Positions 3,741-48,697 of a DNA stretch of 48,697 nucleotides are shown piece by piece. Location: assembly GCA_964444045.1 (NCBI GenBank), contig CAYUFQ010000001.1, positions 1 through 48,697 of the forward strand, given 5' to 3'. The notes beneath the pieces are model-generated. The model made no database searches and was not told the origin of the DNA. It worked only from the letters and a program-made list of their open reading frames with translations. The DNA comes from an uncultured Bacteroides sp. (GTDB lineage: Bacteria; Bacteroidota; Bacteroidia; Bacteroidales; Muribaculaceae). The position numbers and the translations under genes were made by a program. Every line of letters begins with the position of its first letter. Within the stretch, counting starts at the first letter, position 1.

Positions 3741-3748
3741 CAAAGTTA
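3741..3748 (-). promoter_or_regulatory. Bacteroidota -7 box (TAACTTTG on the minus strand) upstream of cca
   Basis: The plus strand reads caaagtta. The box lies 10 nt upstream of the ATG at 3730. Confidence 0.45.
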
Positions 3749-3804
3749 CGAAAAAATTTTTGAAACGGATTTTTGCACCTCTTTGCGCCACTTTTCCCGG
3801 GTTT

Positions 3805-4032: not shown

Positions 4033-4077
4033 TCTCAAAAATTAATAAATAATAATAAAATCACTATCAAATTAGCA

Positions 4078-7000
4078 ATGAGAAAAACATTACTTTGTTT
4101 GACTTTTGGCCTGACCGCCTTCCTGGCGGTTCCAAAGGCATCGGCCGAGCATAAGGTCGAGGTGGAGCTTGACAGGGCCGCCTGGACCGTCAGAGGCTGC
4201 TCGGAGCATAATGCAAACAGCGGCGACGGCGGATTCCGTCATATCACGGACGGAAATACTTCGACGTTCTGGCACAGTGAGTACGGCAACAGCAACCATG
4301 ACACGACATGCCCCCACTATTTCGTGATTGACCGCGGCGAGAACGCCTCGGAGGTGCCGTTTTCCACATTCGGTTTTCTGCCGCGTCAAGCCGCCGGCAA
4401 TGGTTTCGTACAGAATTACCGTCTTTATGTACTCGATGACGTTTCGGGCCTCAACGTGGCTGCGGCAGCTGCCAACGGCAGTGCGTCCATCGTGTCTGAC
4501 AATCACGCATCGTTGACAACATTTCTCGAAAACAAGACGCCCACATTGCAGGGAAATCTTGACCGCGTGTATAATGACGCAACCAAACGGACCCTTGTAA
4601 AGGTGGATTTTCCATCGGAGCAGACAGGGCGTTATGTGCTTTTTGTAATCGACAGCACCTCAAGTTCTGCCGGCAATGACCTGCATGCCAATTGTGCGGA
4701 GTTCTATCTTTATTCGTCTATTGATGTTGACTATCCTTACTACATCAGGCTCACTGAGGCAGAAAACACGTATCTTCAGCTCGAATCGAGTTCGAACGGC
4801 ACGAAAGCCGAGGTGTCGACCGAAGTCAAGACGCCGGTGTTTCTCGTTCCCGGTACGGGAGATAATGACGGTAAATTCGCGATAATGAATGCCCAAACCG
4901 GCAAGTATTTTTCGAGCGACACCGGTTGGACCTCAACCTACAACAATAGCAGTATCTACTACTGGAGATTCAGAGAGCTGGACGATGGCAATTTCGTTAT
5001 CGCCCAGAGTGGAAATGCCTCCAACCTTGCAGGCACACAGGCCGATAACATCGTGTGGACCGACAACTACGTTGGCCGCACGCAGAACGGATGGACCGCA
5101 AAGGTGAAGTGGGCGCTCGAGGTATGTAACGACTGGATAATTTCGGCCGATATAAATAATCCCGGATATGTACTGATTAAGAATGTGCGCACTACCGGAC
5201 GCGATGGCGTTACTTATGCCGTGACTCCGGGCAGCAGCGGCCAGCTGGAACTGAAGCTTGACGATGAGCTGAATATCGGCGACCGCTATGATGTGGGAGC
5301 CTTGTGGTATATGCAGCAGGCCGGCGCTGTCGATGCCGAAGGCTATGTGCCTGTCAGAATATATAATGCCTATACCACCGAAGCCATAACCAATCCGGCT
5401 ACCGGCAGCTGGGCAACGTCGGGCGACGACATCATATGGTATCTCAAGAAAAACAGCCAGGGCGACTATAGCGGATTCAATATACTTCATGCCAAAGACC
5501 TAACCGATACGAACGTTGCATGGAATGATTTTCAGGGCTCCGGCACCCGCGTAGGCTATTGGAATGGAAATGATGCCGGTTCTATCTGGTCCGTCGAGCT
5601 GGCTGAAGTGGATAAGGCGGAGGCCACCCTTAATGAAATCAATGCGGCATATGCCGCCGAGCGTAAGGCGTACGTGGACTTAATCAATTCGTATATTGAA
5701 AACGGCATGTTCGCATTCTCGGAGGAGCAGCAGGCCGCATGGACCACCGCAGCAAGCGCAGGCATAAAGAACTCCGATCATTTAAATCAGCTGATGGCTA
5801 CTCTTCACCAGCTGGTTGACGATGCTTTCTCCGGTCAGGTTGCTGACGGTCATAACAGCCACGTGCAGTTCCTGCACGACCAGCGTCCGGTCTACATAGG
5901 CAAGACTTCCGACGGAGTGAGGCGCGGCGGCGATGAGGGCACACGCACCTTTACCCTCAAGAATGCGGAAGATGGCTCGGGCTTCTACATTTTCCATGAG
6001 TACAGCAACCAATACGTGAAACATCCTACCGCTGACAACACAAACATATCGTTGGTGTCGGACCAGAGCGAGGCTTCGATTTATAACTTTGACCTTTCGA
6101 ACGCAAGCAAGGGACTGGTGGGTGTGAAGGTAGTCGGTCCCGAGGGTCATGTCAACAGCAATTGCTACTGGCATAGCAACAGCACCGGCGACGTTACCAA
6201 CGTGGTAAGATGGGTAAAGGGCGACAATTCAGCCTGGTATATCTGCTTTGTCGACGAAGCTCAGGCCGCCACCGAATATCTTGCCGGAGCAATCAATATC
6301 TCGGGCTCTCTGCCTGAATCGAGCGATGAGGTCGGCTTCCTCAAGATCAGCTCGGCTGATGAGGCAAAAGCGGCCCATGAGGCAGCCGTGGCCCTGGCTG
6401 ACGATGCTGTGGCCTCGGAGAAGCGTGCCGCCGCAGATGCAATCTACAGCGCTATGGCCTCGATGGAGGTAGTTCTCAATTATCCCCGGAGTGGCGAAAT
6501 TTACACCATTACCTGCCCTGAAGCGAGCCGCGGCGCCCTGACGGCCAATCTCGATGCCGGCAATCAGTATGTATGGTCAAGCGGCAAATCAGGCTCTAAT
6601 GCCGATGCCAACAAGTGGGCGGTGGTTGAGAAAGATGGCAGGAGTTATCTCTATAACGTTGCCGTCGGCAAGTTTGTCAATGCCTATGGCTTCCTGTCTA
6701 ACTCGAGCAATAAAAGCCTGGAGGGGGTTGCGTATGCATGGATGTTCGGCGACGTGGCCACTGAGGTGACGTTCAACGGCGAAATCTTCACTCAACCCAC
6801 CGACGGCACTACCCGTAAGTTCGTCATCGCCGGCGGCGAGGATACCACCGGCAAGAATCGTCCGGGCATGATGGTGATTGACTGGCTTGACTCACCTATC
6901 CCCGCTATTGCCGGTTTTAGCGATGAGCAAGACGGTTGCGGCTTCAGGTTCGTGAAGGTTGAAGATGCCTCGGAAGAGCTGATGGCCACCATCAACGCCG

Positions 7001-24673: not shown

Positions 24674-25993
24674 ATGCTGTACAGAAAAATAGAATCGTCT
24701 ATACGCGAATACCTGCAAGGCCCACGAAACAGGGTGCTTGTAGTGCAGGGCGCGCGTCAGATTGGCAAGTCGTATATAATACGTCATGTTGCGTCGCAGC
24801 TTTTCCCTAACTATATAGAACTGAACCTCGTTGAGGATAAGGAGGGTAATCGTCAGTTTGCCGGAGTTCACACGGTTGAAGATTTTTATCTGAGGCTGAG
24901 TTTGGTCGCCGGTGATAAAATGACCGGAGATCGTGAGAATACTGTTGTGTTTCTCGATGAAATTCAGGAGTATCCGCAGCTGCTTACTCTGTTGAAGTTT
25001 CTGAACGCCGACGGCCGGTTTACGTATGTGGCTTCGGGTTCGCTGCTTGGTATCGTGTTGCGCTCCACCACCTCCATCCCGGTTGGGAGTTTGCGCATAA
25101 TGGATATGTATCCGCTTGATTTCGCTGAATTTATGCGGGCTAATTCTGTGGGGGAGTTCGCTATTGACGTTTTGCGCGATAAGTTCCGTCGGGGTGAGAC
25201 TCTTGACGAGGCGATGCACGCCCGTTTGCTTTCGCTTTGGAAAAAATATCTGCTTGTGGGTGGTCTGCCTGACGCTGTCAATGCATATGTCGAAACGAAC
25301 AATATCGTTGAGGTGCGTAACATTCAGCATGATATAATAAGGCTTTACGCAGCCGATGCTTCAAAGTATGATGAAGAGCACAGGCTGGTGATAAAGCGGG
25401 TCTACGACCTCATTCCTTCCAACATGGAAAACAAACTGAAAAGGGTGGTTTTGCGCGATATCGAGAACAAGGTGGGCGTGCGTTATGCCAGCTATATGGA
25501 GGAATTTGAATATCTGATATCATCCGGTATCGCTTTAGAGGTCATGGCCGTAAGCAATCCAAAGTATCCCCTGTCGGAAAGCATGACAAAGAATCTGCTC
25601 AAACTCTATCTTAACGATCCGGGACTGCTGAGCGCAATACTTTATGGCCGCGATGCGCAGGCGGTTCTTGATGACAAGCTGTCGGTAAATCTTGGTTCGC
25701 TTTATGAGAGCGGTGTGGCGGCGCAGCTCAAGGCTTTAGGATATAGGCTGTTCTATTACGACAATAAGAAAAAAGGAGAAGTTGATTTTTTGATAAACGA
25801 CCGGGAGCGTCAGTCAATCCTGCCGTTGGAAATCAAGTCGGGAAAAGACTATAAAGTGCATAGCGCCATAGACAATTTTGTCAATACGCCCGATTATGGC
25901 ATAGAGCGGGCCATTGTGTTTTCCAACAATCGCGAAATCAATCGGATAGGTAAAGTTATTCATTGTCCGATTTATTTCACTCCGTTCCTGTAG
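24674..25993 (+). CDS. AAA+ ATPase with a DUF4143-type C-terminal domain
   Basis: P-loop VVQGARQIGKSY, Walker B VVFLDEIQ, and overall resemblance to the AAA_14/DUF4143 family. GC is visibly lower than in the neighbours. Confidence 0.75.
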   Translation: MLYRKIESSIREYLQGPRNRVLVVQGARQIGKSYIIRHVASQLFPNYIELNLVEDKEGNRQFAGVHTVEDFYLRLSLVAGDKMTGDRENTVVFLDEIQEYPQLLTLLKFLNADGRFTYVASGSLLGIVLRSTTSIPVGSLRIMDMYPLDFAEFMRANSVGEFAIDVLRDKFRRGETLDEAMHARLLSLWKKYLLVGGLPDAVNAYVETNNIVEVRNIQHDIIRLYAADASKYDEEHRLVIKRVYDLIPSNMENKLKRVVLRDIENKVGVRYASYMEEFEYLISSGIALEVMAVSNPKYPLSESMTKNLLKLYLNDPGLLSAILYGRDAQAVLDDKLSVNLGSLYESGVAAQLKALGYRLFYYDNKKKGEVDFLINDRERQSILPLEIKSGKDYKVHSAIDNFVNTPDYGIERAIVFSNNREINRIGKVIHCPIYFTPFL

Positions 25994-26051
25994 CCGTATT
26001 GTTGACGGGCAGGGCAATTTTTGGGGGCGGGGGTGCGTTAGATAGGTAGCT

Positions 26052-35918: not shown

Positions 35919-38257
35919 GCTTTCTTGCTTCGTGAGGTTGACTTCCTGGCCGTTTTTGCCGGCTGGGCGGCTATGATTTCGCGACATTCCCCGAGGGTGA
36001 GCGCTGCGGGGTCGGCAATGGTTTTCGGAATTTTGTAGTTATTCTTCTGCCATGCTATGTAGGGACCGAAGCGGCCGTTGAGAATCTGCATGTCGGGTTC
36101 TTCGTCGAAGCTCTTGACCAGACGGTTGGCCTCGGCCTGACGCTTGGCTTCGATAAGGGCTATGGCTTCGTCGATGGTGATTTCGGCGGGCGCGGTGCCT
36201 GAGGGGATGGAAACGAACTTGCCGTCGTGCTTCACGTAAGGGCCGAAACGGCCGATGGCCACGGTGACGTCCTTGCCCTCGAATTCGCCTATGGTGCGCG
36301 GGAATTCAAAGAGTTTCAGCGCCTCGTCGAGGGTGATGGTGGCCAGCGACTGCCCTTTGAGCAGCGATGCGAACTGCGGCTTTTCGTCGCTCTCCGATTC
36401 GCCTATCTGCACCAGCGGGCCGAATCGGCCTATCTTCACCGAAACGGGCTTGCCCGTGCCGGGCTGGATGCCGAGCACTCGCTCGCCCACCTTGTGTTCG
36501 AGGCGCACGTTCATGGCTTTGTCTACTTCGGGGTGGAAGCGGTCGTAGAAGTCGCCTATCTCGTTGTGCCACTCCGATTTTCCCTCGGCAATGTCGTCAA
36601 ACTTCTCTTCGACCGACGCCGTGAAGTTATAGTCGAGAATGTCGGGGAAATATTCGGCCAGGAAGTCGTTGACCACGGTGCCGGTGTCGGTTGGCAGCAG
36701 CTTGCCGCGGTCGGCGCCGACCGATTCGGTGCGCTCGGTGCGCGAAATCTTGCCGTCGGCCGGATTGAGCGCCAGGCGTGCGATGGTGTGGACGGTGCCT
36801 TCGCGGTCGCCTTTCTCAACGTATTCGCGCTGCTGGATGGTGGAGATGGTGGGCGCGTAGGTCGACGGGCGGCCGATGCCGAGCTCTTCCATCTTCTTCA
36901 CGAGCGAGGCTTCGGTGTAGCGCGGCGGATGCGCGGTGAAGCGCTCGGTGGCGGTGATTTCGGCCGGGGCTACGGGCTCGCCTTCGGTGAGGTGGGGCAG
37001 AATGCTCTCGCGCTCTGATTCGGCCTCATCGTCGCGGCTTTCGAGATACACTTTCAGGAAGCCGTCGAACTTAATCACCTCGCCCTGGGCCGAGAAGTGT
37101 TCGGGGCGGGTGGATATGCTTATGTCGGCAGTGGTGCGCTCGAGTTCGGCGGCGGCCATCTGCGAGGCTATTGCCCGGCGGCGAATCAGGGCATACAGCC
37201 GCTTTTCGCGGTCGGAGCCCTCGATGGTTTCTTTGTCGAGATATGTGGGGCGGATTGCCTCGTGGGCCTCCTGGGCGCCCTTGGTGCCGGTGTGGTACTG
37301 GCGGGTGCATACGTATTCGGCCCCGAGCTTGTCGGTGATTACCTTGGCAATGGCGTTGAGGGCGAAGTTCGACAGGTTTACCGAGTCGGTTCGCATATAC
37401 GTTATGTGGCCGGCCTCATAGAGGTCTTGGGCAATGCGCATGGTCTGCGACACCGAGTAGCCCAGCTTGCGGGCTGCCTCCTGCTGCAGGGTGGAGGTGG
37501 TGAATGGGGGTGCGGGATTCTTTTTCAGCGGCTTCGTTTCGATGCGGCTCACGGCAAACGTGGCTCCGCTGCAGGCCTCGAGCAGCTCGCGGGCGGCCTG
37601 TTCAGTGGCCGGGCGCCGGCTCAGGCTTGCCGCGAAGCGCGAGCCGTCGGCAGTGGCAAACTTGCCGTCGACGCGAAAGTATTGCTCTGATTTGAATGCC
37701 TTTATCTCGTTCTCGCGGTCAACTATCAGCCTCACGGCAACGCTTTGCACGCGGCCGGCGCTCAGGGCTGGCTTGATTTTTTTCCACAGCACCGGGCTCA
37801 GCTCAAAGCCCACTATGCGGTCGAGCACGCGGCGTGCCTGCTGGGCGTTGACGCGGTCGATGTCGATGCCCCGCGGGTTGGCTATGGCGTTGAGGATAGC
37901 CTCCTTGGTGATTTCGTGAAACACTATGCGGCGGGTCTTTTCGGGTTTGAGGCCGAGCACTTCGTAGAGGTGCCAGGCGATGGCTTCGCCTTCGCGGTCT
38001 TCATCGGACGCGAGCCATACCATCGATGCCTTTTTGGCGGCGGCTTTGAGTTCGCGCACCTGCTCTTTCTTCTCGTCGGGAATTTCGTAGTTGGGCGTGA
38101 AGTCGCGCATGCCGTCGGTGGTCTTCTCGATGAAGCTCTTTTTGGCGAGGTCGCGTATGTGTCCGCGGCTCGACATCACCGTGTAGTCGGGACCGAGAAA
38201 CTTTTCAATGGTCTTGGCCTTGGCCGGAGACTCAACTATTACCAGATTCTGAGCCAT
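35915..38257 (-). CDS. topA: DNA topoisomerase I
   Basis: The ATG at 38257 gives MAQNLVIVESPAKAKTIEKFLG (Toprim). ITYMRTDS is the active-site Tyr region. The C-terminus has repeated topo-I C-terminal-type modules (GRFGPY..., three times). Confidence 0.9.
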   Translation of the reverse strand: MAQNLVIVESPAKAKTIEKFLGPDYTVMSSRGHIRDLAKKSFIEKTTDGMRDFTPNYEIPDEKKEQVRELKAAAKKASMVWLASDEDREGEAIAWHLYEVLGLKPEKTRRIVFHEITKEAILNAIANPRGIDIDRVNAQQARRVLDRIVGFELSPVLWKKIKPALSAGRVQSVAVRLIVDRENEIKAFKSEQYFRVDGKFATADGSRFAASLSRRPATEQAARELLEACSGATFAVSRIETKPLKKNPAPPFTTSTLQQEAARKLGYSVSQTMRIAQDLYEAGHITYMRTDSVNLSNFALNAIAKVITDKLGAEYVCTRQYHTGTKGAQEAHEAIRPTYLDKETIEGSDREKRLYALIRRRAIASQMAAAELERTTADISISTRPEHFSAQGEVIKFDGFLKVYLESRDDEAESERESILPHLTEGEPVAPAEITATERFTAHPPRYTEASLVKKMEELGIGRPSTYAPTISTIQQREYVEKGDREGTVHTIARLALNPADGKISRTERTESVGADRGKLLPTDTGTVVNDFLAEYFPDILDYNFTASVEEKFDDIAEGKSEWHNEIGDFYDRFHPEVDKAMNVRLEHKVGERVLGIQPGTGKPVSVKIGRFGPLVQIGESESDEKPQFASLLKGQSLATITLDEALKLFEFPRTIGEFEGKDVTVAIGRFGPYVKHDGKFVSIPSGTAPAEITIDEAIALIEAKRQAEANRLVKSFDEEPDMQILNGRFGPYIAWQKNNYKIPKTIADPAALTLGECREIIAAQPAKTARKSTSRSKKA

Positions 38258-38310
38258 TGTGTTCTTCTGTTGAGATTTTTGTGTGTATGTGGAGTTTTGA
38301 ATGCCTCGGC

Positions 38311-39267
38311 TTAGAGCTCGAGGGCCACGTTGTCGACCCACAGCTCCATGCCCAGCTGCCCTTCGAAAGCAACTCCGCTGCCGGCCGAAAACATCATTAT
38401 CATGTGGGTGGGCGTGGCGTCGGCGTTATCCCAGCCCTCTTCGTGCACCGGCACCATCTTGCCCTTCGAGTTGCGGGCATAGTAGGCGCGGTCGCCGTCG
38501 AGCAGTTGCATATAGGGTTTATAGTATGAGGTTTTGGTTATGTCGCCGTAGTGAATGGGCATCTTGTAGGCTTCCTTCCAGTCGCTGTTGCCGGTGAAGC
38601 GCTGGCGGGCGGTGCCCACGCGCTTGGCGTGGATATTGCCCTTCTCATCTTCCCAGCGGCGCTGAAGGTAGATGAACACGTCGGCGCTGTCGTCGCCCTT
38701 GTGGGTGCTCCTGGAGCCGGTGGTGGCGCGGGTTATGATGCCCGTGCCCGGATCGATGACCTTATAGTCAAACACCAGTGCCTGCGGGCGCAGGGTGTAG
38801 GGGATGCCCATCTCCATCTTGCTGTAGGGCGACGAGGTGTTGGCTATCGGTTCGTTCATCTTGCCCAGGAAAATCGAGCCGCTGACGAGCACTTCGATGT
38901 TGACTATGCCGATGGCCTTGCAGCTTTCGAGGCAGGTGGTGAGGCGGGCACACTTGCCGTGGCCTTTGTGTTCGGCCGGAAACACGGCGTTGGAGGTCTT
39001 GACTATGCCGGCCACTTTGGCATAGACGTTCGACGAACCCCACGGCGAACCGCCCTGCGGCTCGTATGCCTTGGCGCCGTCGATGGTCGATGTCGGTCCG
39101 ATTTCATATATCGTCTTTTCTTTACCTCCTATGAGTTTCGACTCCTTGATATTGCGGGTGACCCATTGGTCCATATTGCCGTACTTCAGCGGCGTCACTT
39201 TGGCCTGGGCCGCCAGCGAGGTTGCCAGCGAGGCCGATGCAATCAGCAGTGTTGCTATTTTGTTCAT
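38311..39267 (-). CDS. secreted PCMD-like (putative carbohydrate metabolism domain) protein
   Basis: Signal peptide MNKIATLLIASASLATSLAAQA. The N-terminal YGNMDQWVTRNIKESKLIGG block recalls the PCMD family; this assignment is from memory. Confidence 0.5.
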   Translation of the reverse strand: MNKIATLLIASASLATSLAAQAKVTPLKYGNMDQWVTRNIKESKLIGGKEKTIYEIGPTSTIDGAKAYEPQGGSPWGSSNVYAKVAGIVKTSNAVFPAEHKGHGKCARLTTCLESCKAIGIVNIEVLVSGSIFLGKMNEPIANTSSPYSKMEMGIPYTLRPQALVFDYKVIDPGTGIITRATTGSRSTHKGDDSADVFIYLQRRWEDEKGNIHAKRVGTARQRFTGNSDWKEAYKMPIHYGDITKTSYYKPYMQLLDGDRAYYARNSKGKMVPVHEEGWDNADATPTHMIMMFSAGSGVAFEGQLGMELWVDNVALEL

Positions 39268-39326
39268 ATCAGTCAGATAGTCTTTTGGTTGCGGTTAGTG
39301 TGGGAGGGTGCTGTGCGGTGGGCGTG

Positions 39327-40526
39327 TCAGGCCGACCAGGTGTGATATTCCGTGCGGCGGTGGCGGCTGCGCATGCGGGCCAGCAGATTGGTCAGCGGGC
39401 GGCGCAGCATCATGGGCAGCACCATCGGCATTGCCGGCAGGCAGCGCAGGGCCTTGAGAGTGCGCCGCCAGGTAAGGCCGAGCACTATGATGCAGAGCAG
39501 CAGCGCGAACGCATATGCGCCGAGGGCTATCCAGTTACGCAGCAGGGCTGCCAGGGCGATTCCGGCCACGGAACCGACGGTCATGACCCAGGCCATCAGC
39601 GACGAGAATCCGCAGAAGCGATGAGCCGCGTGCGAGAGCGGGCGCTCGGTGTAGACTCGCGCGGCGCGGCCGCGGTTGAATTCGCTGCGCGAGTCGGGCT
39701 GCGGGTAGCGCACGGCCGCCTGAGCCGCGCATACCACTGCCGTTTGCCCCTGACGGGCTATTTTGCTGATGAAAATGTCGTCGTCGCCTTCGCGCAGGTT
39801 CAGTGCGCCCTCGAAGCCGCCCGCGTTGAAGAATGCGTCGGCTCTGAAGGCCATGTTCATGCGGTGGGCGCGATACGGCTTGCCGCGCAGGGCGGCAGCG
39901 AGCCAGCGGGTGGCGTCGGCGCCGTGGGTGAACGACCGGTAGCGGCGGCCGCGCCCGCGGTCGTATTTCGCGCCGGGTAATGCCGTGCCGGCCACCAGCG
40001 TGACCTCTTCGCGGCCAAAGGGCTCCATCATCCGTGCCAGCCATTGCGTCGAGAAGATGCGCGACTGCTCGGTGAGCGACAGTATCACCGGATGGTGCGC
40101 CGCCTTGATGCCAAGGGTCAGCGCCAGCTTGCGGTGCGACACGTTGCGCAGCCCCGGCGGGGTGAACGTGATGTAGAGGTTGGGTCGGTGCTGAAGGTGC
40201 TTTATGCGGGTCACCACGTCTTTCACGTCGTCGTTCTTGCCGTCGTTGACCACCACCACCTCCATCTCCCCGGCATATTCCTGCTCGAAGAGCCGGGCAA
40301 GCAGCCGCTCGAGCGCCGGAGCGTCATCGCCGGCCACTATCACCACCGATGCGCCCGGCGGGGTGGGGCGCGGGTCGGGATTGAACGGTGCGGCCGTCTG
40401 CTCCCTTATGGCTTTGCCCACGGAGGCCACCCGGGCCCTGTAATACGTGAGCAGCCATGCCGCGGCTATGGCCACAGGCGCTCCGAGCCAAATCATTATG
40501 TCGGTCAGGGGCAGTTGAGTTGTCAT
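39327..40526 (-). CDS. membrane-bound family 2 glycosyltransferase
   Basis: GT2 pattern SVVIVAGDDAPALERLL...EVVVVNDGKNDD with flanking TM segments. The ATG overlaps the lgt stop (ATGA). Confidence 0.7.
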   Translation of the reverse strand: MTTQLPLTDIMIWLGAPVAIAAAWLLTYYRARVASVGKAIREQTAAPFNPDPRPTPPGASVVIVAGDDAPALERLLARLFEQEYAGEMEVVVVNDGKNDDVKDVVTRIKHLQHRPNLYITFTPPGLRNVSHRKLALTLGIKAAHHPVILSLTEQSRIFSTQWLARMMEPFGREEVTLVAGTALPGAKYDRGRGRRYRSFTHGADATRWLAAALRGKPYRAHRMNMAFRADAFFNAGGFEGALNLREGDDDIFISKIARQGQTAVVCAAQAAVRYPQPDSRSEFNRGRAARVYTERPLSHAAHRFCGFSSLMAWVMTVGSVAGIALAALLRNWIALGAYAFALLLCIIVLGLTWRRTLKALRCLPAMPMVLPMMLRRPLTNLLARMRSRHRRTEYHTWSA

Positions 40527-41584
40527 TTCTTCGAATCGGTGTCAGCGAACTTGTTGGGGAACGTCATGGCCAGGCGCGGACGCTTCATAGCGCGCCACAC
40601 GAGAATCACCCCGGCCACTATGAACGGAACGCTCAGCAGTTGCCCCATGTTCAATATCATGTTGTTTTCAAACTCCTCCTGCGGATTTTTCACGAATTCA
40701 ATCAGCAGCCGGCTCAGGAACACACCTATAAAGAATATGCCCAGCAGCAGTCCGGGGCGCTCTTCGGCGTTTTTGCGCCAGTAGAGCCACATCAGCAGGC
40801 CGAACAGCAGCAGATAGGTTCCGGCCTCATAGAGCTGCGTGGGGTGGCACGGAATCTCCGACCCGTTGAAACGGAAGCCCCATGGCAGCGAGGTCGGATG
40901 GCCGTAAATCTCGGAATTGAACAGGTTGCCCAGGCGAATCAGACAGGCCACCAGCGCCACCGGCACGCACAGACGGTCAAACGACCACAGGGGCGACTTC
41001 TTGGTGACAAACGCCGAGTAGAGGAATATGGCCAGAATTATGCCTATCGTGCCGCCGTGGCTGGCCAGGCCCCCCTCCCACACCGCGAGAATCTTGGCCG
41101 GGTGGGCCGAATAGTAATCCCATTTATAGAAGAAGCAGTGGCCCAGGCGGGCGCCTACGATGGTGGCCACGAGCACGTAGATGAGCATCGACGGCAGCCA
41201 CTGCTCGCGCGCTCCTTCGTGGCGGAACATGTGCCACATGATGCGATAGCCCGCTATGAAGCCGATGAGAAACATCAGCCCGTACCAGCGCACGCTCAGC
41301 GGCCCTACCGTCAGCCCCGCCGGATTGTGGATGCGCAGCGCCAGAAGCACCGCGCCGATCAGTGCGGCCATCAGAGTGCCGTTCCAGCCGTCCTGAGGCT
41401 TGGCGGCGGCCTTTGCTCCGGCTTCCTTCCATTTTTTCAGCGCTTTGGCCGAGCGCAGATGGTCGGCCAAAGCCCACGCCGCGCATATGAAGATGCCGAG
41501 CAGCAACATGCCCGGTGACACGTTGAAAGGTCCGGCCGAAAACAGCACCGGATCCCAGGTCCAGGTGATAAAACTGAATATCAT
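40523..41584 (-). CDS. lgt: prolipoprotein diacylglyceryl transferase with a duplicated or extended N-terminal segment
   Basis: GPLSVRWYGLMFLIGF, GGLASHGG and HPTQLYEAGTYLLLF are Lgt signatures. I take the ATG at 41584 as the start because a -7 box sits directly upstream; the track start at 41803 overlaps the TatD-like gene. Confidence 0.8.
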   Translation of the reverse strand: MIFSFITWTWDPVLFSAGPFNVSPGMLLLGIFICAAWALADHLRSAKALKKWKEAGAKAAAKPQDGWNGTLMAALIGAVLLALRIHNPAGLTVGPLSVRWYGLMFLIGFIAGYRIMWHMFRHEGAREQWLPSMLIYVLVATIVGARLGHCFFYKWDYYSAHPAKILAVWEGGLASHGGTIGIILAIFLYSAFVTKKSPLWSFDRLCVPVALVACLIRLGNLFNSEIYGHPTSLPWGFRFNGSEIPCHPTQLYEAGTYLLLFGLLMWLYWRKNAEERPGLLLGIFFIGVFLSRLLIEFVKNPQEEFENNMILNMGQLLSVPFIVAGVILVWRAMKRPRLAMTFPNKFADTDSKK

Positions 41585-41589
41585 GGCGG

Positions 41590-41597
41590 CAAAGTTA
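41590..41597 (-). promoter_or_regulatory. -7 box TAACTTTG (minus strand) 5 nt upstream of the lgt ATG
   Basis: The plus strand reads caaagtta. Confidence 0.4.
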
Positions 41598-41669
41598 CGC
41601 AAAAAATACAACCCCGACAAAATCCCTTCTCCCTTTTCGCCAACCTTCCAGCCATTCCGGCCATTACAA

Positions 41670-42173
41670 TCAGTCGGTTTCGTGGAGCAGGCGGTCGGGG
41701 GGAATGACCGCGGTGGCTGCGGGATTATGCTTCTGACCGACAGAGATATGGAAGCCAGCCCTGACGAGCTGCGCGGCCAGAGCCGGCTTGCCGCGGAAGC
41801 CATGGATTATCCAGGGCTGCGCAGGGTTCATCTGCTTGCGCAGGGCCATGATTTCGCCCCATGCGCCCACTATGTGGAGAATCAGTGGCTTCCCGGTCCG
41901 CTCCGCCAGCAGGGCATGGCGGCGGGTCAGTTCAATCTGGGCGTCGACCGGGCCGGCTCCGCGCAGCTTGTCGATGCCACATTCGCCAATCAGCGCCACC
42001 TGCGGATGTTCGGCCATACGCTCCACCCACTCCATGTCGGCTCCGGGCTGCCACGGGTGCCACCCCACGCTATACAGCGCGCCGGGGCGCATGGCCATGC
42101 CGGGCTCGAGGTTTATAACGGCATCGGTGGCCTCGGGATTATGGGTGTGGATGTCGGCTACCGGCGGTATCAC
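41670..42173 (-). CDS. short TatD-family metal-dependent hydrolase-like protein
   Basis: The GTG start overlaps the prfA stop (GTGA). Motifs DIHTHN, IGECGIDK and a terminal HETD are present. At 167 aa it is shorter than classical TatD. Confidence 0.55.
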   Translation of the reverse strand: MIPPVADIHTHNPEATDAVINLEPGMAMRPGALYSVGWHPWQPGADMEWVERMAEHPQVALIGECGIDKLRGAGPVDAQIELTRRHALLAERTGKPLILHIVGAWGEIMALRKQMNPAQPWIIHGFRGKPALAAQLVRAGFHISVGQKHNPAATAVIPPDRLLHETD

Positions 42174-43273
42174 TGCTGCGCTGACTCGAGCTTGGCGGCG
42201 TTTTCGGCAATGGTCAGCTTGTCGATGACCTCCTGGATGTCGCCGCCGAGAAATGCCGGCAGATTATATATGGTGTAGTTGATGCGATGGTCGGTGATGC
42301 GCCCCTGCGGGAAGTTGTAGGTGCGGATTTTGGCCGAACGGTCGCCGGTGCTCACGAGGGTTTTGCGGCGCGAGGCAATGTCGTCGACATATTTCTGATG
42401 CTCGCGGTCGTAGATGAACGTGCGCAGGCGGCTCAGGGCGCGCTCTTTGTTTTTGGGCTGGTCGCGCGTCTCGGTGCATTCTATCAGAATCTCCTCGCTC
42501 ACGCCGGTGACAGGGTTTTTCCACATATAGCGCAGGCGCACGCCCGACTCCACCTTGTTGACGTTCTGACCGCCGGCACCGCCCGAGCGGAAAGTGTCCC
42601 ATTTGATTTCGCCCTCGTTGATTTCAACGTCGAACTCTTCGGCTTCGGGCAATACGGCCACTGTGGCTGCCGACGTGTGCACCCGGCCCTGGGTTTCGGT
42701 GGCCGGCACGCGCTGCACCCGGTGCACTCCGCTCTCATATTTAAGAGTGCCGTACACGTCGGTGCCGCTCACTGCAAACACAATCTCCTTGAATCCGCCG
42801 GCCGCCCCCTCGCTGACCGAGGTGATGGCCACCGTCCACCCCTTGCTCTCGCAATATCTGGCATACATCTTGAAAAGGTCGCCGGCGAAGAGCGCGGCCT
42901 CATCGCCGCCCGTGCCGCCGCGAATCTCCACTATGGCGTTCTTGGCATCTTCGGGGTCGGCCGGAATGAGCAGAATCTTTATTTCCTCCTCGAGGGCGGG
43001 CAGGGCGGCCGTGGCCTCGTCGAGTTCCTCGCGGGCCAGCAGGCGCAGGTCTTCATCGCGCTCGGATTCGAGCACGGCCTTTGCCTCGGCCTCGTTGGCC
43101 AGCAGGGTGCGATAGCGGCGCATGGCGCCGGTGAGCCGCTCAAGCTCTTTATACTCCTTTGTCAGAGCCACATATCGCTTCATGTCGGCAATCACATCGG
43201 GGTCGGTTATGAGCGTCGAGACCTCCTCAAAGCGCTCCTCAACCCCGTCAAGACGGGTCAATAAATCGTTCAT
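42170..43273 (-). CDS. prfA: peptide chain release factor 1
   Basis: GGQ motif (SGGAGGQNVNKVES) and the RF1-type PAT tripeptide (RVPATETQGR). Confidence 0.9.
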   Translation of the reverse strand: MNDLLTRLDGVEERFEEVSTLITDPDVIADMKRYVALTKEYKELERLTGAMRRYRTLLANEAEAKAVLESERDEDLRLLAREELDEATAALPALEEEIKILLIPADPEDAKNAIVEIRGGTGGDEAALFAGDLFKMYARYCESKGWTVAITSVSEGAAGGFKEIVFAVSGTDVYGTLKYESGVHRVQRVPATETQGRVHTSAATVAVLPEAEEFDVEINEGEIKWDTFRSGGAGGQNVNKVESGVRLRYMWKNPVTGVSEEILIECTETRDQPKNKERALSRLRTFIYDREHQKYVDDIASRRKTLVSTGDRSAKIRTYNFPQGRITDHRINYTIYNLPAFLGGDIQEVIDKLTIAENAAKLESAQQ

Positions 43274-43277
43274 GATG

Positions 43278-43285
43278 CAAAGTTA
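43278..43285 (-). promoter_or_regulatory. -7 box TAACTTTG (minus strand) 4 nt upstream of the prfA ATG
   Basis: The plus strand reads caaagtta. Confidence 0.4.
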
Positions 43286-43426
43286 CGAAAATTTTTACAG
43301 AATTTTTTGAACTTTCCGGCGCAGGTCTGTGTTATATTTTCAAAACAACGAAACAACAACGATTCAACAACAACAACGATTCAACTTTAAATTCACATTA
43401 TATAACTCAATTCAACTACTACCGTT

Positions 43427-44488
43427 ATGAAAAAGGCACTTTTAATGATGGCCGTTCTCCTTGGAGGCATGACCGCCGTCGCACAGTCAATCGACAAGAA
43501 CGAGCTCAAGCAGCTCAAGTCGTTCCTCACTCAGACCTCTGCTGAAGAAGGAAAAACCAATGCCGAAGTTCTGAAAATCACTGACCTGACCAAACCCGCC
43601 ACTTGGGAGGGCGTCACAGTAGCCGACGGCCACGTGACCGAAATCAAGTGGAGCGACAAGAAACTTGCAGGCGATTTCACCGCCACCGGATTCTCAGCGC
43701 TGACCTCAGCCGACATTTCGCGCAACAGCATTTCATCGGCCAACTTCGACGGCTCGGCCGCAGTGACCACCATCAATGCTTACCGCAACAAGCTCACGGC
43801 GTTCTCGGCCGACGGATGTACCGCCCTGCAGAAACTGAATATCTACCGCAACCGCCTGACCGATATCGATATCAACGGCACCCCGATGCTGCAAACCCTC
43901 AACGTCAGCAACAACAACTTCGTTGAATTCTCGGTTGCCAACAGCGCTAACCTCCGCACTCTCAACTGTCAGGGTTGCCACATCGAACGCCTCGACATCA
44001 GCGGATGCACTGCCCTGAAACACCTCTATGCCGGCTACAACAAGCTCACCGAACTTGAACTCGTGGGAGTTGAAAGCCTCCAGAACATCAACATTGATAG
44101 CAACGACATGAAGACGCTGATTATCAGCAATCTGCCCTCGCTTGGCACCCTGCTCTGCTCCGACAACCAGCTCACCTCGCTCACTGTTCGCGAATGTCCC
44201 GTGATGCTCGACCTCGTTTGCTCCTACAATGACCTTACCTCTCTGCAAGTTGCATCTTGCCCTCAGCTCCAATACGTTGACTGCTCTTACAACGACCTGA
44301 CCGAGCTCTACCTCGACAACTTCAACTTCCTCCAGCGCGTGATTTGCAATAACAACCAGCTGCAGACTCTCTCAGTCACCTTCGACGATGCTCTCCGCTA
44401 CATCAACTGCCGCTACAACCAAATCACCGACTTCCGCACCACAGGCTCTAACGACATTCAGCAGGTTGCCTGCCAGTGGAACTACTAA
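43427..44488 (+). CDS. secreted leucine-rich repeat (LRR) protein
   Basis: Signal peptide MKKALLMMAVLLGGMTAVAQS, followed by about 12 units of ~22 aa of the form L..L.C..N.LT.LD...C..L. Confidence 0.8.
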   Translation: MKKALLMMAVLLGGMTAVAQSIDKNELKQLKSFLTQTSAEEGKTNAEVLKITDLTKPATWEGVTVADGHVTEIKWSDKKLAGDFTATGFSALTSADISRNSISSANFDGSAAVTTINAYRNKLTAFSADGCTALQKLNIYRNRLTDIDINGTPMLQTLNVSNNNFVEFSVANSANLRTLNCQGCHIERLDISGCTALKHLYAGYNKLTELELVGVESLQNINIDSNDMKTLIISNLPSLGTLLCSDNQLTSLTVRECPVMLDLVCSYNDLTSLQVASCPQLQYVDCSYNDLTELYLDNFNFLQRVICNNNQLQTLSVTFDDALRYINCRYNQITDFRTTGSNDIQQVACQWNY

Positions 44489-44534
44489 TACGACGGTTGA
44501 ATTAAGTTAATATATCCCGTCCGATTCTCGGATC

Positions 44535-44565
44535 GATGCCGGCCCCTCAAAGGCCGGCATCTTTT
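44535..44565 (+). terminator. rho-independent terminator of the LRR gene
   Basis: A 10-bp stem (gatgccggcc 44535-44544 / ggccggcatc 44552-44561) followed by TTTT. Confidence 0.8.
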
Positions 44566-45136
44566 GCACATATAGTAGAACGTCGTTATTTTTGTAGAAT
44601 AAATTGCTCACAAGAGCGTCAATCTCAAATATATTTGCTAACTTTGTGCTATCCGATGGAGGAGAAATACCGTCGGAGAAGAAAAGTGTCAAACTTTCTT
44701 TCTCAGCAAGACGAATCGCCAATTCAATAACAGACTGAGATGGAGTGAGATTAGACGCTCTTTCTGTCTTTGTCAAGCCTAACCGGTGGCCTATGATGCT
44801 GCTACTTAGCATAGACAAATTCAGAGGGGCAGTTTATTCTACCCTCATATATCATTCAGTCTGTAGGCTTTGGCGAGCCTGTCTTGCTATGATAGAGGTG
44901 CGATAAATTCCCCTCTTTTCTTGTACCCATATCAAACCGCCGAATTAGGGAGTCAAGAGGCAAAAAACTATAATTAACGTGAAAAGACGGTTATCTATAC
45001 AATTACCACTAATGGCAAAAGTTGGGAAGAAACAAGAGTCCTTTGAGATGGCACAAAGATTACACGTAATATAATAAAATATCAATTGATAACGTTATAT
45101 TTAAATTTAATTTTTTAACTATATGTTTAAAAAACC

Positions 45137-46321
45137 ATGACATTCAAAACCACGCCTAAAAATGTAACAAAGCTTTCCAAATGTGAGATATTTGTTTTTG
45201 GTAGTAATATTTTAGGAGAACATACTGGTGGCGCTTCTCTTACTGCTTATAAAAAATTTGGTGCAGAATGGGGAATAGGCTTTGGACCTACAGGACAATG
45301 TTACGCTATACCAACTATGCAAGGTGATATAGAGTCCATAAGGCCTTATGTAGACAAATTTATAGAGTATGCCAAAACACATCCTAATAATCGTTTTCTT
45401 GTCACTCGTTTAGGATGTGGATATGCCGGATTTTCCGATGATGAAATGGCACCACTGTTCACCGATGCGTTTGATTTGCCAAATGTTCATTTACCTGAAA
45501 AGTGGCGTAATATTATCTTTGCCCCTCGCTTTATGGATGCGTTATTTGGGAGTGTATCTGTTAATAAATCAGTAGAAATTCCTCCTGTCATTACCGAACA
45601 AGACCTGATTCGTCTTTGTGATGAATATAAGTATATAATTGGGGCTGGCATAAAAACTGTCTCAAAACCTCATATTAGAATTCGTTATGTGATTGATAAT
45701 AACCGTTTTGGTTATGCTAACTTCGGTGATTTCTTTTTCTTTGGTGATGACGACCTATATGTATGGACACGAAAAAAAGAATTTGAAGAATACCATAATC
45801 AAGATGTCGTGGAAGGATATTTTAACGATGAATGCACAGGGCGTGGTTTCTGCCATAGAGTGATATTTGCGGGTGTTAAAACTCCGTATTATGATTCCAA
45901 AGGGGAGCCGATCTTCACCGGCGATGTGCTTAAGATACTTACTATCGGTTTTGATGGCAAAAAAGATGTCTCTGATAAAGAATTTGAAGATAGGTCTGAA
46001 ATTCTTGCTTTTGGCACACTTGGCGAAAACACTAAAGATAGTTCAGCTGCCTATTGTTTCCCATTAGATAATCATTGTATAACACCTGAAATGGTAGCCC
46101 GCTGGGAGCGAATCGGAACTGTGTTTTATCAACTTGATCATAACGAAAAGCTAATTCCGATTACAGAAAGATGTTTTGAATTTCAAGACATATATCATAT
46201 GGGCCTTGATAAGGAGAAAAAGAGAATAATGGCGCGATATACTCCTAATTCCGATAAAGAAGTCTGGAAGTATCTTGCATTAGAACTTATTGGGTGCGAG
46301 GAATATAAATGGAGAAAATAA
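45137..46321 (+). CDS. phage-type protein: N-terminal A1S_2505-like (FVFGSN...GxxGG...IPT...GCGYAG) domain fused to a YopX-like C-terminal region
   Basis: 394 aa, AT-rich. The N-terminus EIFVFGSNILGEHTGGASLTAYKKFGAEWG...QCYAIPT...FLVTRLGCGYAGFSDDEMAPLF matches a phage non-structural protein family I recall from memory. The C-terminal YYDSKGEPIFTGDVLKIL...WERIGTVFYQL resembles the YopX pattern. Confidence 0.65.
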   Translation: MTFKTTPKNVTKLSKCEIFVFGSNILGEHTGGASLTAYKKFGAEWGIGFGPTGQCYAIPTMQGDIESIRPYVDKFIEYAKTHPNNRFLVTRLGCGYAGFSDDEMAPLFTDAFDLPNVHLPEKWRNIIFAPRFMDALFGSVSVNKSVEIPPVITEQDLIRLCDEYKYIIGAGIKTVSKPHIRIRYVIDNNRFGYANFGDFFFFGDDDLYVWTRKKEFEEYHNQDVVEGYFNDECTGRGFCHRVIFAGVKTPYYDSKGEPIFTGDVLKILTIGFDGKKDVSDKEFEDRSEILAFGTLGENTKDSSAAYCFPLDNHCITPEMVARWERIGTVFYQLDHNEKLIPITERCFEFQDIYHMGLDKEKKRIMARYTPNSDKEVWKYLALELIGCEEYKWRK

Positions 46322-46353
46322 TTCAAATCTAATTAATTACATAATTAAATCTT

Positions 46354-46893
46354 ATGAATCAATCATCAAAACAATCATTAGGAGCAAGCGGGGAATATGA
46401 GGTAATATCACGTCTTATATTACAAGGTTGGGACGCTTGCATTTCAAATCTGACAAAAAACAATTTCAAGTTAATAGATGTTTTTTGTCATAACCCCGAA
46501 CTAAGCAAATTAGTTGGAATTCAGGTCAAGACTACAACAAAAAACATTTTTCCCATTGGAATGACTATCGGAGATATAAGAAGCGGTAATTGGCATTCCA
46601 AGATTTTAGGCCCATGGATTTTTGTGCAAGTTAAAGGTACAATTACGAAACCAGATTTTAGATTCTTCATTCTTTCGCGTTCTGAAATGATTAAAATGGT
46701 TGAAGTTACGCATGATTGGTACATTAATCAATGGAATCGGACTAAACCTCTATCGGATAGAGGAGTTGTATGTATCTATTTGAAATGGCTGGAAAAAATA
46801 GATGAAAAGGCAAAGTTTAGCGTTCATCCACAATGTATAATTCCTTTAAAAGAATCTGCAGAGAATCAATGGTCAAAACTTTGGGATGACTAA
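46354..46893 (+). CDS. PD-(D/E)xK nuclease-superfamily-like protein
   Basis: 179 aa, starting 32 nt after the upstream gene. GASGEYEVISRLILQGW...KLIDVFCHNP...VGIQVKTT fits an E...D...(Q/E)xK nuclease core, as in Hjc or restriction-endonuclease-like folds. Confidence 0.6.
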   Translation: MNQSSKQSLGASGEYEVISRLILQGWDACISNLTKNNFKLIDVFCHNPELSKLVGIQVKTTTKNIFPIGMTIGDIRSGNWHSKILGPWIFVQVKGTITKPDFRFFILSRSEMIKMVEVTHDWYINQWNRTKPLSDRGVVCIYLKWLEKIDEKAKFSVHPQCIIPLKESAENQWSKLWDD

Positions 46894-46968
46894 TTATTTT
46901 TGCGTATTAAAGCACTGATTTAATTAGGGCATTGAAAAAGTCTTTCTTGGGCTAAGGCATTAAATTAG

Positions 46969-47012
46969 TCGGCATATATTCAGGCAATTGTTTGTATATA
47001 TGCCGATTTTTG
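46969..47012 (+). terminator. rho-independent terminator ending the two-gene island operon
   Basis: An 11-bp perfect stem (tcggcatatat 46969-46979 / atatatgccga 46996-47006) with a 16-nt loop, followed by TTTTT. Confidence 0.8.
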
Positions 47013-47156
47013 TTCTCCCGATATGGGCATAATCTAACGGGTACAAGCCCCGAGTGCGCCCTGATGGTGGGAGATACATAGTGTTACCTCCTACTCGATT
47101 GCGCATTACAGAACGAGAAGTGTATGAGTGATATTTGGATTGTGGAGAAAATGCAC

Positions 47157-47164
47157 TAACTTTG
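47157..47164 (+). promoter_or_regulatory. orphan -7 box TAACTTTG with no convincing downstream gene
   Basis: Motif match. Downstream there is only a weak 88-codon GTG ORF (47128..47394) and a small hairpin (ctttcg/cgaaag). Confidence 0.3.
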
Positions 47165-47419
47165 CAAAAAAGAAAGTACAGCTTTCGATTTTCGAAAGTG
47201 CAACTTTAGAATTTTACGGCAGCGGATTGCATCTGTTTGAAATAACGGCGGCAAGGACTCTCAAACCCGAGTTTACCGCTAATATGAAAGCGGTTTCGGC
47301 TTCAGTGGGCGGAGTCAGGACGTCGACGGTTATATACGATGGAGAGGATTTTCCGCCGCTGGCGGTGAAATTTCGTCATGTTATCGAGGTGTAGTGCAGG
47401 GAATCTGCAAAAAAATTCT

Positions 47420-47427
47420 TATCTTTG
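47420..47427 (+). promoter_or_regulatory. -7 box TATCTTTG upstream of purH
   Basis: It lies 27 nt upstream of the ATG at 47455. Confidence 0.5.
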
Positions 47428-47454
47428 CGGTGTTCTTAAGAATTTACACCATAT

Positions 47455-48697
47455 ATGGCAAACGACATCCGCAAGATTGGCACTGCGCTGATCTCTGTCT
47501 ATCACAAAGATGGACTTGATGAATTATTGGCCTTGCTCCATAAGGCCGGAGTTAAGTTTCTGAGCACCGGCGGCACCCGCTCTTTCATTGAGGGGCTGGG
47601 ATATGAGTGCGACGCCGTTGAAGACCTCACCGGCTATCCGTCGATTCTCGGCGGCCGCGTCAAGACGCTGCATCCCAAGGTGTTCGGCGGTATTCTTAAC
47701 CGCCGCGACAACGAAGGCGACCGAGAGCAGATAGCCAAATACGAAATACCCGGAATTGACCTTGTGATAGTTGACCTCTATCCGTTTGAGGCCACCGTCG
47801 CTTCGGGCGCTTCGGATGCTGATATTATAGAAAAGATTGATATAGGCGGCATTTCGCTCATACGCGGTGCGGCCAAGAACTGGAAAGACGTTGTAATCGT
47901 TGCCTCGAAGGCCCAGTATGCTCCGCTCACCGAGATTATCAAGGCCCAGGGCGCCGAAACCACCGGAGCCCAGCGCCGATGGTTCGCCAAGGAGGCCTTC
48001 GCAGTGAGCAGCCACTACGACAGCGCTATTTTCAACTATTTCGACGGCGATGCCGAGGAGCCCTCGGCCCTGCGGGTGGCCGTTGACGGCATCAAGCCTA
48101 TGCGCTATGGCGAGAATCCTCATCAGCGCGGCTATTTCTTCGGCAATTTCAATGAAATGTTTACCCAGCTTCACGGCAAGGAGATAAGCTATAACAACCT
48201 GCTCGACATCGATGCCGCCGTTAGCCTGATGGCTGACTTTACCGACACTACGTTTGCCGTGCTCAAGCACAACAATGCATGCGGAGTGGCCTCGCGCCCC
48301 ACTGTGGCCGAGGCCTGGCGCGATGCCCTTGCCGGCGACCCCGTCAGCGCCTTTGGCGGTGTGCTCATCACCAACCGCAAGGTCACTGCCGAAGCCGCCA
48401 AGGAGATTAACAGCATCTTCTTCGAGGTGATTATCGCTCCCGGCTATGAGGATGAGGCGCTTGAGGTGCTTAAGAGCAAGAAGAACCGCATCATTCTGGT
48501 GCAGCACGCTCCGGCGGCCGCGACCATGAGCTTCCGTTCGTGTCTGAACGGCGCTTTGGTGCAGGCCCGCGACCTGAAGGTGGAAACCGCGCAGGATCTC
48601 ACTCCGGCCACCAACACCCCCGTAGACCCCTCGCAGATTGAAGACCTGCTGTTTGCCAACAAAATCGTGAAGCACTCCAAGAGCAACGCCATAGTGC
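47455..48697 (+). CDS. purH: bifunctional AICAR transformylase / IMP cyclohydrolase (3' end lies outside the window)
   Basis: I translated this by hand; it is absent from the ORF track because no stop codon falls within the window. MANDIRKIGTALISVYHKDGLDELLALLHKAGVKFLSTGGTRSFIEGLGYECDAVEDLTGYPSILGGRVKTLHPKVFGGIL...KHNNACGVA... is classic PurH, open to the last base. Confidence 0.9.
   Translation, partial: MANDIRKIGTALISVYHKDGLDELLALLHKAGVKFLSTGGTRSFIEGLGYECDAVEDLTGYPSILGGRVKTLHPKVFGGILNRRDNEGDREQIAKYEIPGIDLVIVDLYPFEATVASGASDADIIEKIDIGGISLIRGAAKNWKDVVIVASKAQYAPLTEIIKAQGAETTGAQRRWFAKEAFAVSSHYDSAIFNYFDGDAEEPSALRVAVDGIKPMRYGENPHQRGYFFGNFNEMFTQLHGKEISYNNLLDIDAAVSLMADFTDTTFAVLKHNNACGVASRPTVAEAWRDALAGDPVSAFGGVLITNRKVTAEAAKEINSIFFEVIIAPGYEDEALEVLKSKKNRIILVQHAPAAATMSFRSCLNGALVQARDLKVETAQDLTPATNTPVDPSQIEDLLFANKIVKHSKSNAIV

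Follow-up and report, generated by a model that had tools for sequence, protein, structure and literature searches.

A horizontally acquired gene pair with a predicted macrodomain head and a nuclease-like partner as a possible defence-island cassette of gut Bacteroidales

Contig CAYUFQ010000001.1 of an uncultured Bacteroides sp. of the Muribaculaceae (assembly GCA_964444045.1) was analysed over a stretch of 48,697 nucleotides (nt), which as a whole is called the window and carries at 44566–47130 an AT-rich island with two open reading frames (ORFs), geneA and geneB, between a leucine-rich repeat (LRR) gene and purH. The island is a foreign segment acquired by horizontal transfer, and its gene pair can be regarded, with confidence that is about evenly balanced, as a defence-island cassette of an undescribed modular family moving among gut Bacteroidales. 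It is the genomic context of these genes that suggests an anti-phage role, and geneA and geneB may act together rather than side by side. The first gene, geneA (45137..46321, + strand), encodes a protein of 394 amino acids (aa) in which an N-terminal domain of predicted macrodomain fold precedes a beta-rich C-terminal module of ~240 aa with a YopX-like core, and geneB (46354..46893, + strand) encodes a small nuclease-like protein of 179 aa with a predicted PD-(D/E)xK fold. The spacer between them (46322..46353, + strand) is 32 nt long, contains no terminator and has no structure (fold of -0.9 kcal/mol), and one strong intrinsic terminator (46967..47013, + strand) follows geneB, which agrees with the single two-gene operon initially read from the sequence. 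Neither ORF is disrupted, and the window copies retain every family-invariant residue.

The guanine–cytosine (GC) content of the island is 0.366 vs. 0.59 in the remainder of the window (0.579 over the entire window), and the lowest-GC stretch of 2565 nt in the entire 48.7 kb begins at 44651, so the computed profile bears out the sharp fall behind the LRR-gene terminator that had been judged by eye. Release factor 1 (RF1, prfA) of the window is 85–92% identical to Muribaculaceae and Duncaniella proteins, which places the host in the Muribaculaceae, and 98% identical to RF1 of contig L200. When reverse-complemented, L200 is collinear with window positions 36866–44565 at 89.7% nucleotide identity. 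The similarity ends at precisely 44565, where the terminator hairpin of the LRR gene (44535..44565, + strand) has its final base and where the foreign segment has its left edge. Past this point, a flavodoxin-like gene and a Lumazine_bd_2 gene follow in L200, which has neither the island nor purH there. Moreover, the closest geneA relative, in locus L062, shares 86% nucleotide identity over window positions 45070–46344 only and sits at an unrelated chromosomal site, beside a large outer-membrane-receptor-like gene. Together, the GC contrast, the L200 synteny break and the L062 homolog at another site identify the segment as horizontally acquired. Across loci, the GC content of geneA ranges from 0.37 to 0.57 and that of the host flanks from 0.32 to 0.59. 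Both hairpins that the original prediction named, the LRR-gene terminator (44535–44561 followed by UUUU, -21.2 kcal/mol, z -3.9) and the one behind geneB (46967–47008 followed by UUUUU, -21.9 kcal/mol, z -6.4, with 0 of 200 shuffles as stable), fold strongly. A simple consensus terminator scan listed neither of them, and a repeat search also recovered the second as an inverted repeat.

The two edges of the segment are defined differently. The proposed insertion between the LRR gene and purH is fixed to the base on the left, whereas a simple insertion there cannot be shown because the sole syntenic relative, L200, has other genes and not purH. The other relatives looked up through RF1 (L201, L203 and L204) are rearranged; therefore, the right boundary and a clean empty site were not obtained. 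Likewise, the break in composition is abrupt on the left, where synteny ends at 44565, but not on the right, where GC rises gradually past geneB, from 0.40 (46900–47199) through 0.45–0.49 (47050–47649) to 0.54 (47500–47799, inside purH, whose ATG lies at 47455). Similarity to other geneA–geneB loci ends at 46884–46897, and the foreign segment terminates on the right at some point from about 46897 to 47454. The LRR protein of L142 is 78% identical to that of the window, and this contig matches 44491–44546 and then ends. Among 51 metagenome loci with LRR homologs, none carries prfA, lgt, purH, geneA or geneB, and, apart from L142, 49 LRR-homolog loci have no flanking genes in common with the window. 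The LRR gene is itself poorly syntenic, its flanks being shared by L200 and L142 only; thus, the variable zone may begin right after prfA. The exact RF1 protein of the window was found in no other contig, so the strain is rare. The absence of mobility genes beside the pair, noted from the outset, is confirmed by the ORF list and a remnant search: no ORF of integrase or transposase size lies in or beside the island and no remnant of one was found, the window contains no tRNA gene, direct repeats flanking the island are only imperfect and chance-like, and a search of the flanks for WYL, UzuA, transposase and other neighbour-protein remnants returned chance-level matches only. Hence, no integrase, transposase, tRNA target or convincing pair of flanking direct repeats marks the island as a product of transposition or site-specific recombination.

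The pair recurs. A scan of species representatives (one genome per species) found 204 geneA relatives, and the neighbourhood counts given here refer to the best 80 of them, all from Bacteroidales (Muribaculaceae, Prevotella, Paludibacteraceae and the isolate Prevotellamassilia timonensis). By scans with hidden Markov models (HMMs), geneB lies directly downstream of geneA in about 24–26 of the 80 (24 intact, one remnant in L075 and one cut by a contig end in L094), and the same arrangement is present in L001, L008/L009 and L015/L016. Across 29 related loci, geneA and geneB share a strand in every case and lie 11–89 nt apart, and the paired loci are 44–68% identical to the window in geneA and 27–75% in geneB. 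The question of whether the genes travel together can, therefore, be answered affirmatively for at least 29 loci. Furthermore, the pairwise distances of geneA and geneB are correlated (Mantel r 0.79, a value that 0 of 2000 permutations reach).

The immediate neighbours of geneA were clustered and then scanned against Pfam and PADLOC. Upstream, and on the same strand, a WYL+WCX regulator is found in 24 of 80 loci (Pfam WYL 9e-15; PADLOC WYL 5e-28). Other upstream neighbours are a DEDDh exonuclease (5/80, Pfam), a NrtR-type Nudix regulator (3/80, Pfam) and a 91-aa zinc-ribbon protein (2/80, L098 and L100, as well as the viral contigs L015 and L016; sub-threshold Pfam zinc-ribbon matches). The downstream position, which geneB fills in about 24–26 of the 80 loci, is taken in others by UzuA of the Uzume system (13/80; PADLOC 7e-74, Pfam GIY-YIG), a 238-aa protein that looks PD-(D/E)xK-like by eye and has no database match (7/80), Nmad2 (4/80, Pfam), GmrSD (2/80, Pfam) or, in several loci, small unknown proteins without a Pfam match. 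These downstream partners are mostly on the same strand, at a gap of a few tens of bases. A constant geneA, a frequent WYL companion and a swappable downstream slot are the habits of defence-island genes, and the original prediction's own test for a cassette, a location among defence genes, is answered by relatives that stand beside UzuA, GmrSD and WYL regulators. Two metagenome-assembled genomes (MAGs) hold two geneA paralogs each, with different neighbours. In RUG14513 (L089/L135), a DEDDh exonuclease lies upstream of the paralog that has a restriction endonuclease (REase)-like partner, and a UzuA-like gene lies upstream of the other; in RGIG4159 (L086/L120), one paralog is without a recognised partner and the other is followed by geneB.

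The geneA family is large, with 833 relatives at E <= 0.001 in a word-index search, the best 120 being nearly all full length. Its N-terminal domain (45188..45505, + strand; residues 18–123) was first called A1S_2505-like, and this holds: NCBIfam NF049995 (A1S_2505_Nterm) matches residues 18–123 over its full model (1–109) with 133.7 bits against a cut-off of 45 (E 2.8e-39), and phrog_2072 matches with E 5.7e-36. In the AlphaFold2 (AF2) model, built on 37 homologs (predicted local distance difference test, pLDDT, 87.2; predicted template modelling score, pTM, 0.83), the N-terminal domain is predicted to have a macrodomain fold. The top 50 Foldseek matches of this region in PDB are almost all macrodomains or macrodomain-scaffold proteins, including BT1257 (2fg1), the Streptomyces coelicolor structure 5e3b, alphavirus nsP3, TARG1, DarG, PARP14 and macroH2A, with probabilities of 0.9–1.0, a target-normalised template modelling (TM) score of about 0.5 and E values of 1.7e-3 to 0.1. 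By sequence, geneA retrieves nothing among PDB chains, and a profile of 29 phage and bacterial N-terminal domains retrieves macrodomains as 4 of its 11 matches in PDB sequences, all of them sub-threshold (E 0.35–1.5). The motifs that are invariant among phage and bacterial N-terminal domains are FVFGSNxxGxH-G-GAA, CYAIPT and VTxIGCGxAG; we take GSNxxGxH-GGAA and GCGxAG to resemble the two glycine-rich ligand loops of macrodomains. Macrodomains as a class bind or hydrolyse ADP-ribose adducts, and by analogy with the modelled fold the ligand of geneA could be of the ADP-ribose type.

The C-terminal module of geneA (45584..46318, + strand; residues 150–394) contains a set of invariant polar residues, among them H220, D231, E232, C233, R236, D253, D263, D311 and N312, which point to another active or binding site besides that of the head. 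The YopX-like call made for this part survives as a remote likeness: Pfam YopX matches 10 of the 37 geneA relatives below threshold (best E 0.0019), and Foldseek against BFVD finds YopX-annotated phage proteins (E 3.7e-5 to 5e-2, with a high root-mean-square deviation and query-normalised TM scores of 0.13–0.24), whereas the window protein itself has no Pfam YopX match even at E <= 5 and, hence, none at the gathering threshold. "YopX-like" would, then, be a fair but remote description of the module, going by the model and the sub-threshold matches. An exhaustive phmmer search also found the module on its own, in proteins of ~240 aa, and in other architectures. In P0137, a 454-aa protein of the representative library, WYL and WCX are fused to the geneA C-terminal module without the macrodomain head; this fusion may tie the regulator to geneA as a Rosetta-stone protein, or it may be an artefact of gene calling.

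For geneB, the PD-(D/E)xK call is supported by an AF2 model (pLDDT 90.9) and by Foldseek against PDB, where the best matches are a SPARDA filament chain (9qcc_M, from the XauSPARDA entry, 5e-4) and the Holliday-junction resolvase Hjc (1gef, 1.3e-3), followed by I-Ssp6803I, EcoRV and DpnI, with probabilities of 0.6–1.0 overall. The predicted fold is, thus, the Hjc/DREN-like version of PD-(D/E)xK. By sequence or profile, geneB has no significant match among PDB chains, and Pfam NOV_C matches weakly (E 0.012). The family motif is E14..D42..Q57-V58-K59, in which D42, Q57 and K59 never vary and E14 almost never does; the spacing of these four residues presumably resembles the catalytic spacing of Hjc (E, D, ExK). 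On the basis of the modelled fold, geneB may be catalytically active. A third gene of ~188 aa, with no known domain, follows geneB in the two closest geneA–geneB relatives (L008:2023-2589; L063:7213-8439); in L063, geneB and the third gene read as one ORF of 408 aa, and the window has its terminator at that place instead.

If the pair is a defence cassette, geneA would recognise or remove an ADP-ribose-type ligand or adduct that arises during infection or DNA invasion, and geneB would cut nucleic acid as the effector. A bolder version of the proposal, which we consider rather unlikely, is that geneA is the conserved sensing or signal-processing core of an undescribed modular defence family of gut Bacteroidales, which would detect or undo a modification or signal made by phages by means of ADP-ribose chemistry and license interchangeable nuclease effectors (geneB, UzuA, GmrSD and Nmad2-linked ones), would often be wired to WYL regulators, and would be countered by lytic phages that carry the bare macrodomain head.

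Several observations weigh against the reading of the pair as a defence cassette, and a number of them favour the main alternative, somewhat unlikely in our judgement, in which geneA and geneB are independent genes of a variable hotspot that each work alone, the position behind geneA merely gathering mobile nuclease or defence genes and the short spacers reflecting compact island packing. About two thirds of the geneA loci lack geneB, including that of the closest relative, L062, and in them geneA is solitary or otherwise partnered; it is solitary, too, in the widespread Duncaniella muricolitica allele P0055, which is listed in 554 blocks of the collection. Conversely, geneB occurs without geneA, alone or with other neighbours, in six loci (L002, L193, L195, L196, L197 and L199). 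The pair is, therefore, not obligate, and the original prediction of a two-gene cassette is upheld in so far as the pairing is recurrent but not as a fixed unit; the family is better described as geneA with an exchangeable gene behind it. Types of downstream partner are interleaved within geneA clades and switch between close relatives, and by rank the distances of the two genes correlate only weakly (Spearman 0.24). WYL–geneA units without a same-strand downstream partner exist (L079 and L121), and the window copy has no WYL regulator, of which a remnant search of the island flanks found no trace. UzuA and GmrSD, which also occupy the slot, act on their own; therefore, their adjacency to geneA may reflect co-location in islands and not cooperation. 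As for the proteins, the macrodomain assignment rests on a predicted structure with Foldseek E values of only 1e-3 to 1e-1, and Pfam Macro matches neither geneA (E <= 1) nor any of 37 relatives (E <= 5). All members of the geneB family have Q where a second acidic residue would be usual, which leaves their nuclease activity uncertain. PADLOC assigns 0 families to geneA, geneB and a distant geneA homolog, and no paper in the literature collection that was searched describes the geneA–geneB pairing or the geneA architecture. The last two results also agree with the first impression that the pairing is not a named defence system.

Against the independence of the two genes, however, a rare gene such as geneB, whose family comprises 15 clusters in a search of 5.8 billion proteins, fills one third of the slots downstream of geneA, always on the same strand, at 11–89 nt and without a terminator in between, and close geneA–geneB pairs co-diverge, as the Mantel correlation indicates. 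The anti-phage cassette that was originally proposed is, thus, favoured by the recurrence of the pair and by its relatives' defence neighbours, whereas its function is drawn from context only and its two genes are not obligate companions.

The phage connection of the family is confined largely to the head of geneA and gives rise to a second alternative. In 452 of 50,697 phage records, the A1S_2505 N-terminal domain occurs, and only as a small free-standing protein, the hosts of these phages including Pseudomonas, Vibrio, Escherichia and Klebsiella. In the N4-like Pseudomonas phage Zuri (L060), the 127-aa domain protein gp22 is among the first genes of the record, before genes annotated as RNA polymerase, and in crAss-like phages the domain lies within an ART-PolyVal protein and within a helicase. 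The depositor's unverified label for Zuri gp22, "DarT ssDNA thymidine ADP-ribosyltransferase family", stands on the A1S_2505 homolog itself and not on a neighbour; it probably reflects a remote macrodomain or DarG-type match rather than a transferase. From such phage proteins, with their place near the start of the Zuri record and their fusions in crAss-like phages, and from DarG and TARG1 among the structural matches, geneA could be seen as a protective or counter-defence enzyme that strips DNA or proteins of ADP-ribose adducts, such as those left by DarT-type or phage ADP-ribosyltransferases, the YopX-like module keeping geneA on nucleic acid. The downstream nucleases would then be selfish (homing-type) or restriction genes that settled beside a conserved gene. 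Nuclease families do alternate at one position and the UzuA-like partner weakly matches the PADLOC "HEase" model; the Foldseek resemblance of the geneB model to the homing endonuclease I-Ssp6803I is the one observation that would point to a free-standing homing endonuclease. Nevertheless, we consider this alternative quite improbable: neither the island nor the immediate neighbours that were scanned yielded an ADP-ribosyltransferase gene, the strong link to WYL regulators and validated defence genes fits host defence better, and homing needs a homologous recipient allele, whereas geneA–geneB pairs are found at unrelated chromosomal sites.

A third alternative, that the pair is a prophage remnant or a phage moron left behind, two final survivors of a decayed phage that no longer serve the host, was entertained in the original prediction and now appears very improbable. 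It would account for the AT-rich composition, for the phage-associated label that NCBIfam and PHROGs give to the N-terminal domain, and for the two IMG/VR contigs that hold full-length geneA and geneB. However, full-length geneA is found in 0 and geneB in 1 of the 50,697 phage records, the latter an unverified 5.5-kb fragment (L199), and the moron reading is weak because of this near absence. Decay is also at odds with two intact ORFs that keep their family-invariant residues, and no phage genes lie near the pair in the window, L001, L008 or L062. One of the IMG/VR contigs (L016:203-4698, catalogued as viral; L198 is the same contig) has a DUF3584 SMC-like ATPase of 1216 aa and a DUF7281 protein ahead of the pair and an insertion sequence (IS) transposase behind it, and no virion genes adjoin; to judge from these genes, L016 looks like a bacterial island. 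Its DUF3584 and DUF7281 proteins may resemble the JetC and JetD pair of Wadjet-like systems. The L199 fragment (MT838246.1, "Bacteriophage sp.") carries at 538–4678 a row of nucleases, namely a PLD-like protein, PDDEXK_13/REase-ARP, the geneB homolog and Mrr_cat; by its gene content, this fragment, too, looks like a bacterial defence island. Finally, the partners of geneA include nucleases whose folds are unrelated, and some copies of geneA have no partner, so a toxin–antitoxin system with geneA as the antitoxin of geneB was rejected.

As a defence cassette, the pair can be set beside several known systems. Like DarTG, it would be a compact mobile two-gene module with a macrodomain protein in a nucleic-acid-directed conflict, and the macrodomains that the geneA N-terminus matches in structure include those of DarG. 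However, no DarT (DUF4433) ADP-ribosyltransferase is adjacent, the sole neighbour being geneB with its predicted PD-(D/E)xK fold, and geneA has the YopX-like module in place of the DarG C-terminal domain. As in type II Thoeris, the macrodomain could be the ligand-sensing part of a small defence operon, whereas no TIR ThsB is present in the island or was identified among the scanned immediate neighbours, geneA has no predicted transmembrane part, and the effector would be a separate nuclease. A preprint on anti-defence genes of N4-like phages cites work in which the ThsA macrodomain binds His-ADPR (His-ADP-ribose), and it does not treat the A1S_2505 family. The Uzume and GmrSD systems are alike in that geneA relatives stand in WYL–geneA–UzuA or geneA–GmrSD operons, with geneB in the same slot in the window. 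They differ in that the window lacks UzuA, GmrSD and WYL, that geneB is unrelated in sequence to UzuA and GmrSD and that a geneA component lies outside both described systems.

The individual proteins have relatives of their own. Hjc resolvases and the SPARDA DREN domain are the best structural matches of geneB (1gef and 9qcc_M), whereas geneB is free-standing, carries Q for an acidic residue, lacks an Argonaute partner and extends at its C-terminus into a further region of helices and beta structure. The phage A1S_2505/phrog_2072 proteins are 38–59% identical to the window domain and share its invariant motifs, but have neither the C-terminal module nor a geneB partner. YopX (PF09643) shows weak sequence and clearer structural similarity to the geneA C-terminal module, which is about twice the size of the YopX domain. 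To our knowledge, YopX itself has no known function and, therefore, the resemblance explains little.

Upstream of geneA, the island begins with an AT-rich non-coding leader of 504 nt (44566..45069) that has no counterpart in the related loci compared, the GC content being 0.37 across 44566–45136. Against all retrieved loci, the region upstream of geneA gave blastn and tblastx matches only in its first 58 nt and its last 67 nt, and no remnants of the neighbour proteins known from family loci were found in the leader; an antisense ORF at 44507–44818 has no NCBIfam match and was deemed spurious. Directly in front of geneA, a conserved region of 67 nt (45070..45136, + strand) is homologous to L062 from 45070 onwards and contains a perfect 12-bp palindrome, TATCAATTGATA, at about 45081–45092, which is kept in L062 with its surrounding sequence and lies in a palindromic region also flagged by the repeat search. 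This palindrome may be an operator or promoter element, and the island itself has no regulator gene. TAnnTTTG is the Bacteroidetes-type -7 promoter motif, and three copies of it on the + strand (44587, 44630 and 44639) lie just past the LRR terminator, ~500 nt before geneA; others are at 47157–47164 and 47420–47427, the last ending 27 nt before the purH ATG, and the motif is enriched in the window (28 copies vs. 12.4 expected).

The transition zone upstream of purH (47014..47454), with a GC content of about 0.41–0.47, has no homology to related loci. It contains an ORF of 88 aa (47128–47394), which matches no family meaningfully and probably does not represent a gene. No credible RNA was found by Rfam at 43000–48697. 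The LRR lipoprotein-like gene on the other side of the island (43150–44488) has a GC content of 0.537 and an AT-rich upstream region (about 0.39), and other lower-GC patches of the window, whose GC content is otherwise ~0.6, lie at 4001–5000 (0.505) and 25001–26000 (0.473).

Catalogues of defence systems have been built mainly from Proteobacteria and Firmicutes, and gut Bacteroidales are poorly covered. With over 800 proteins, the geneA family has a macrodomain head that is modelled with confidence and that hundreds of lytic phages carry as well, and it is associated with WYL regulators and a changing set of nucleases. If the cassette does defend its host, it would represent a branch of ADP-ribose-linked immunity with swappable nuclease effectors and would provide a functional handle on the A1S_2505/phrog_2072 and YopX-like families. 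If it does not, its site would still be a recurrent variable hotspot, useful for mining defence genes in Muribaculaceae and Prevotellaceae and for explaining how gut strains differ in phage susceptibility. The pair is a well-defined and testable lead in an under-explored phylum.

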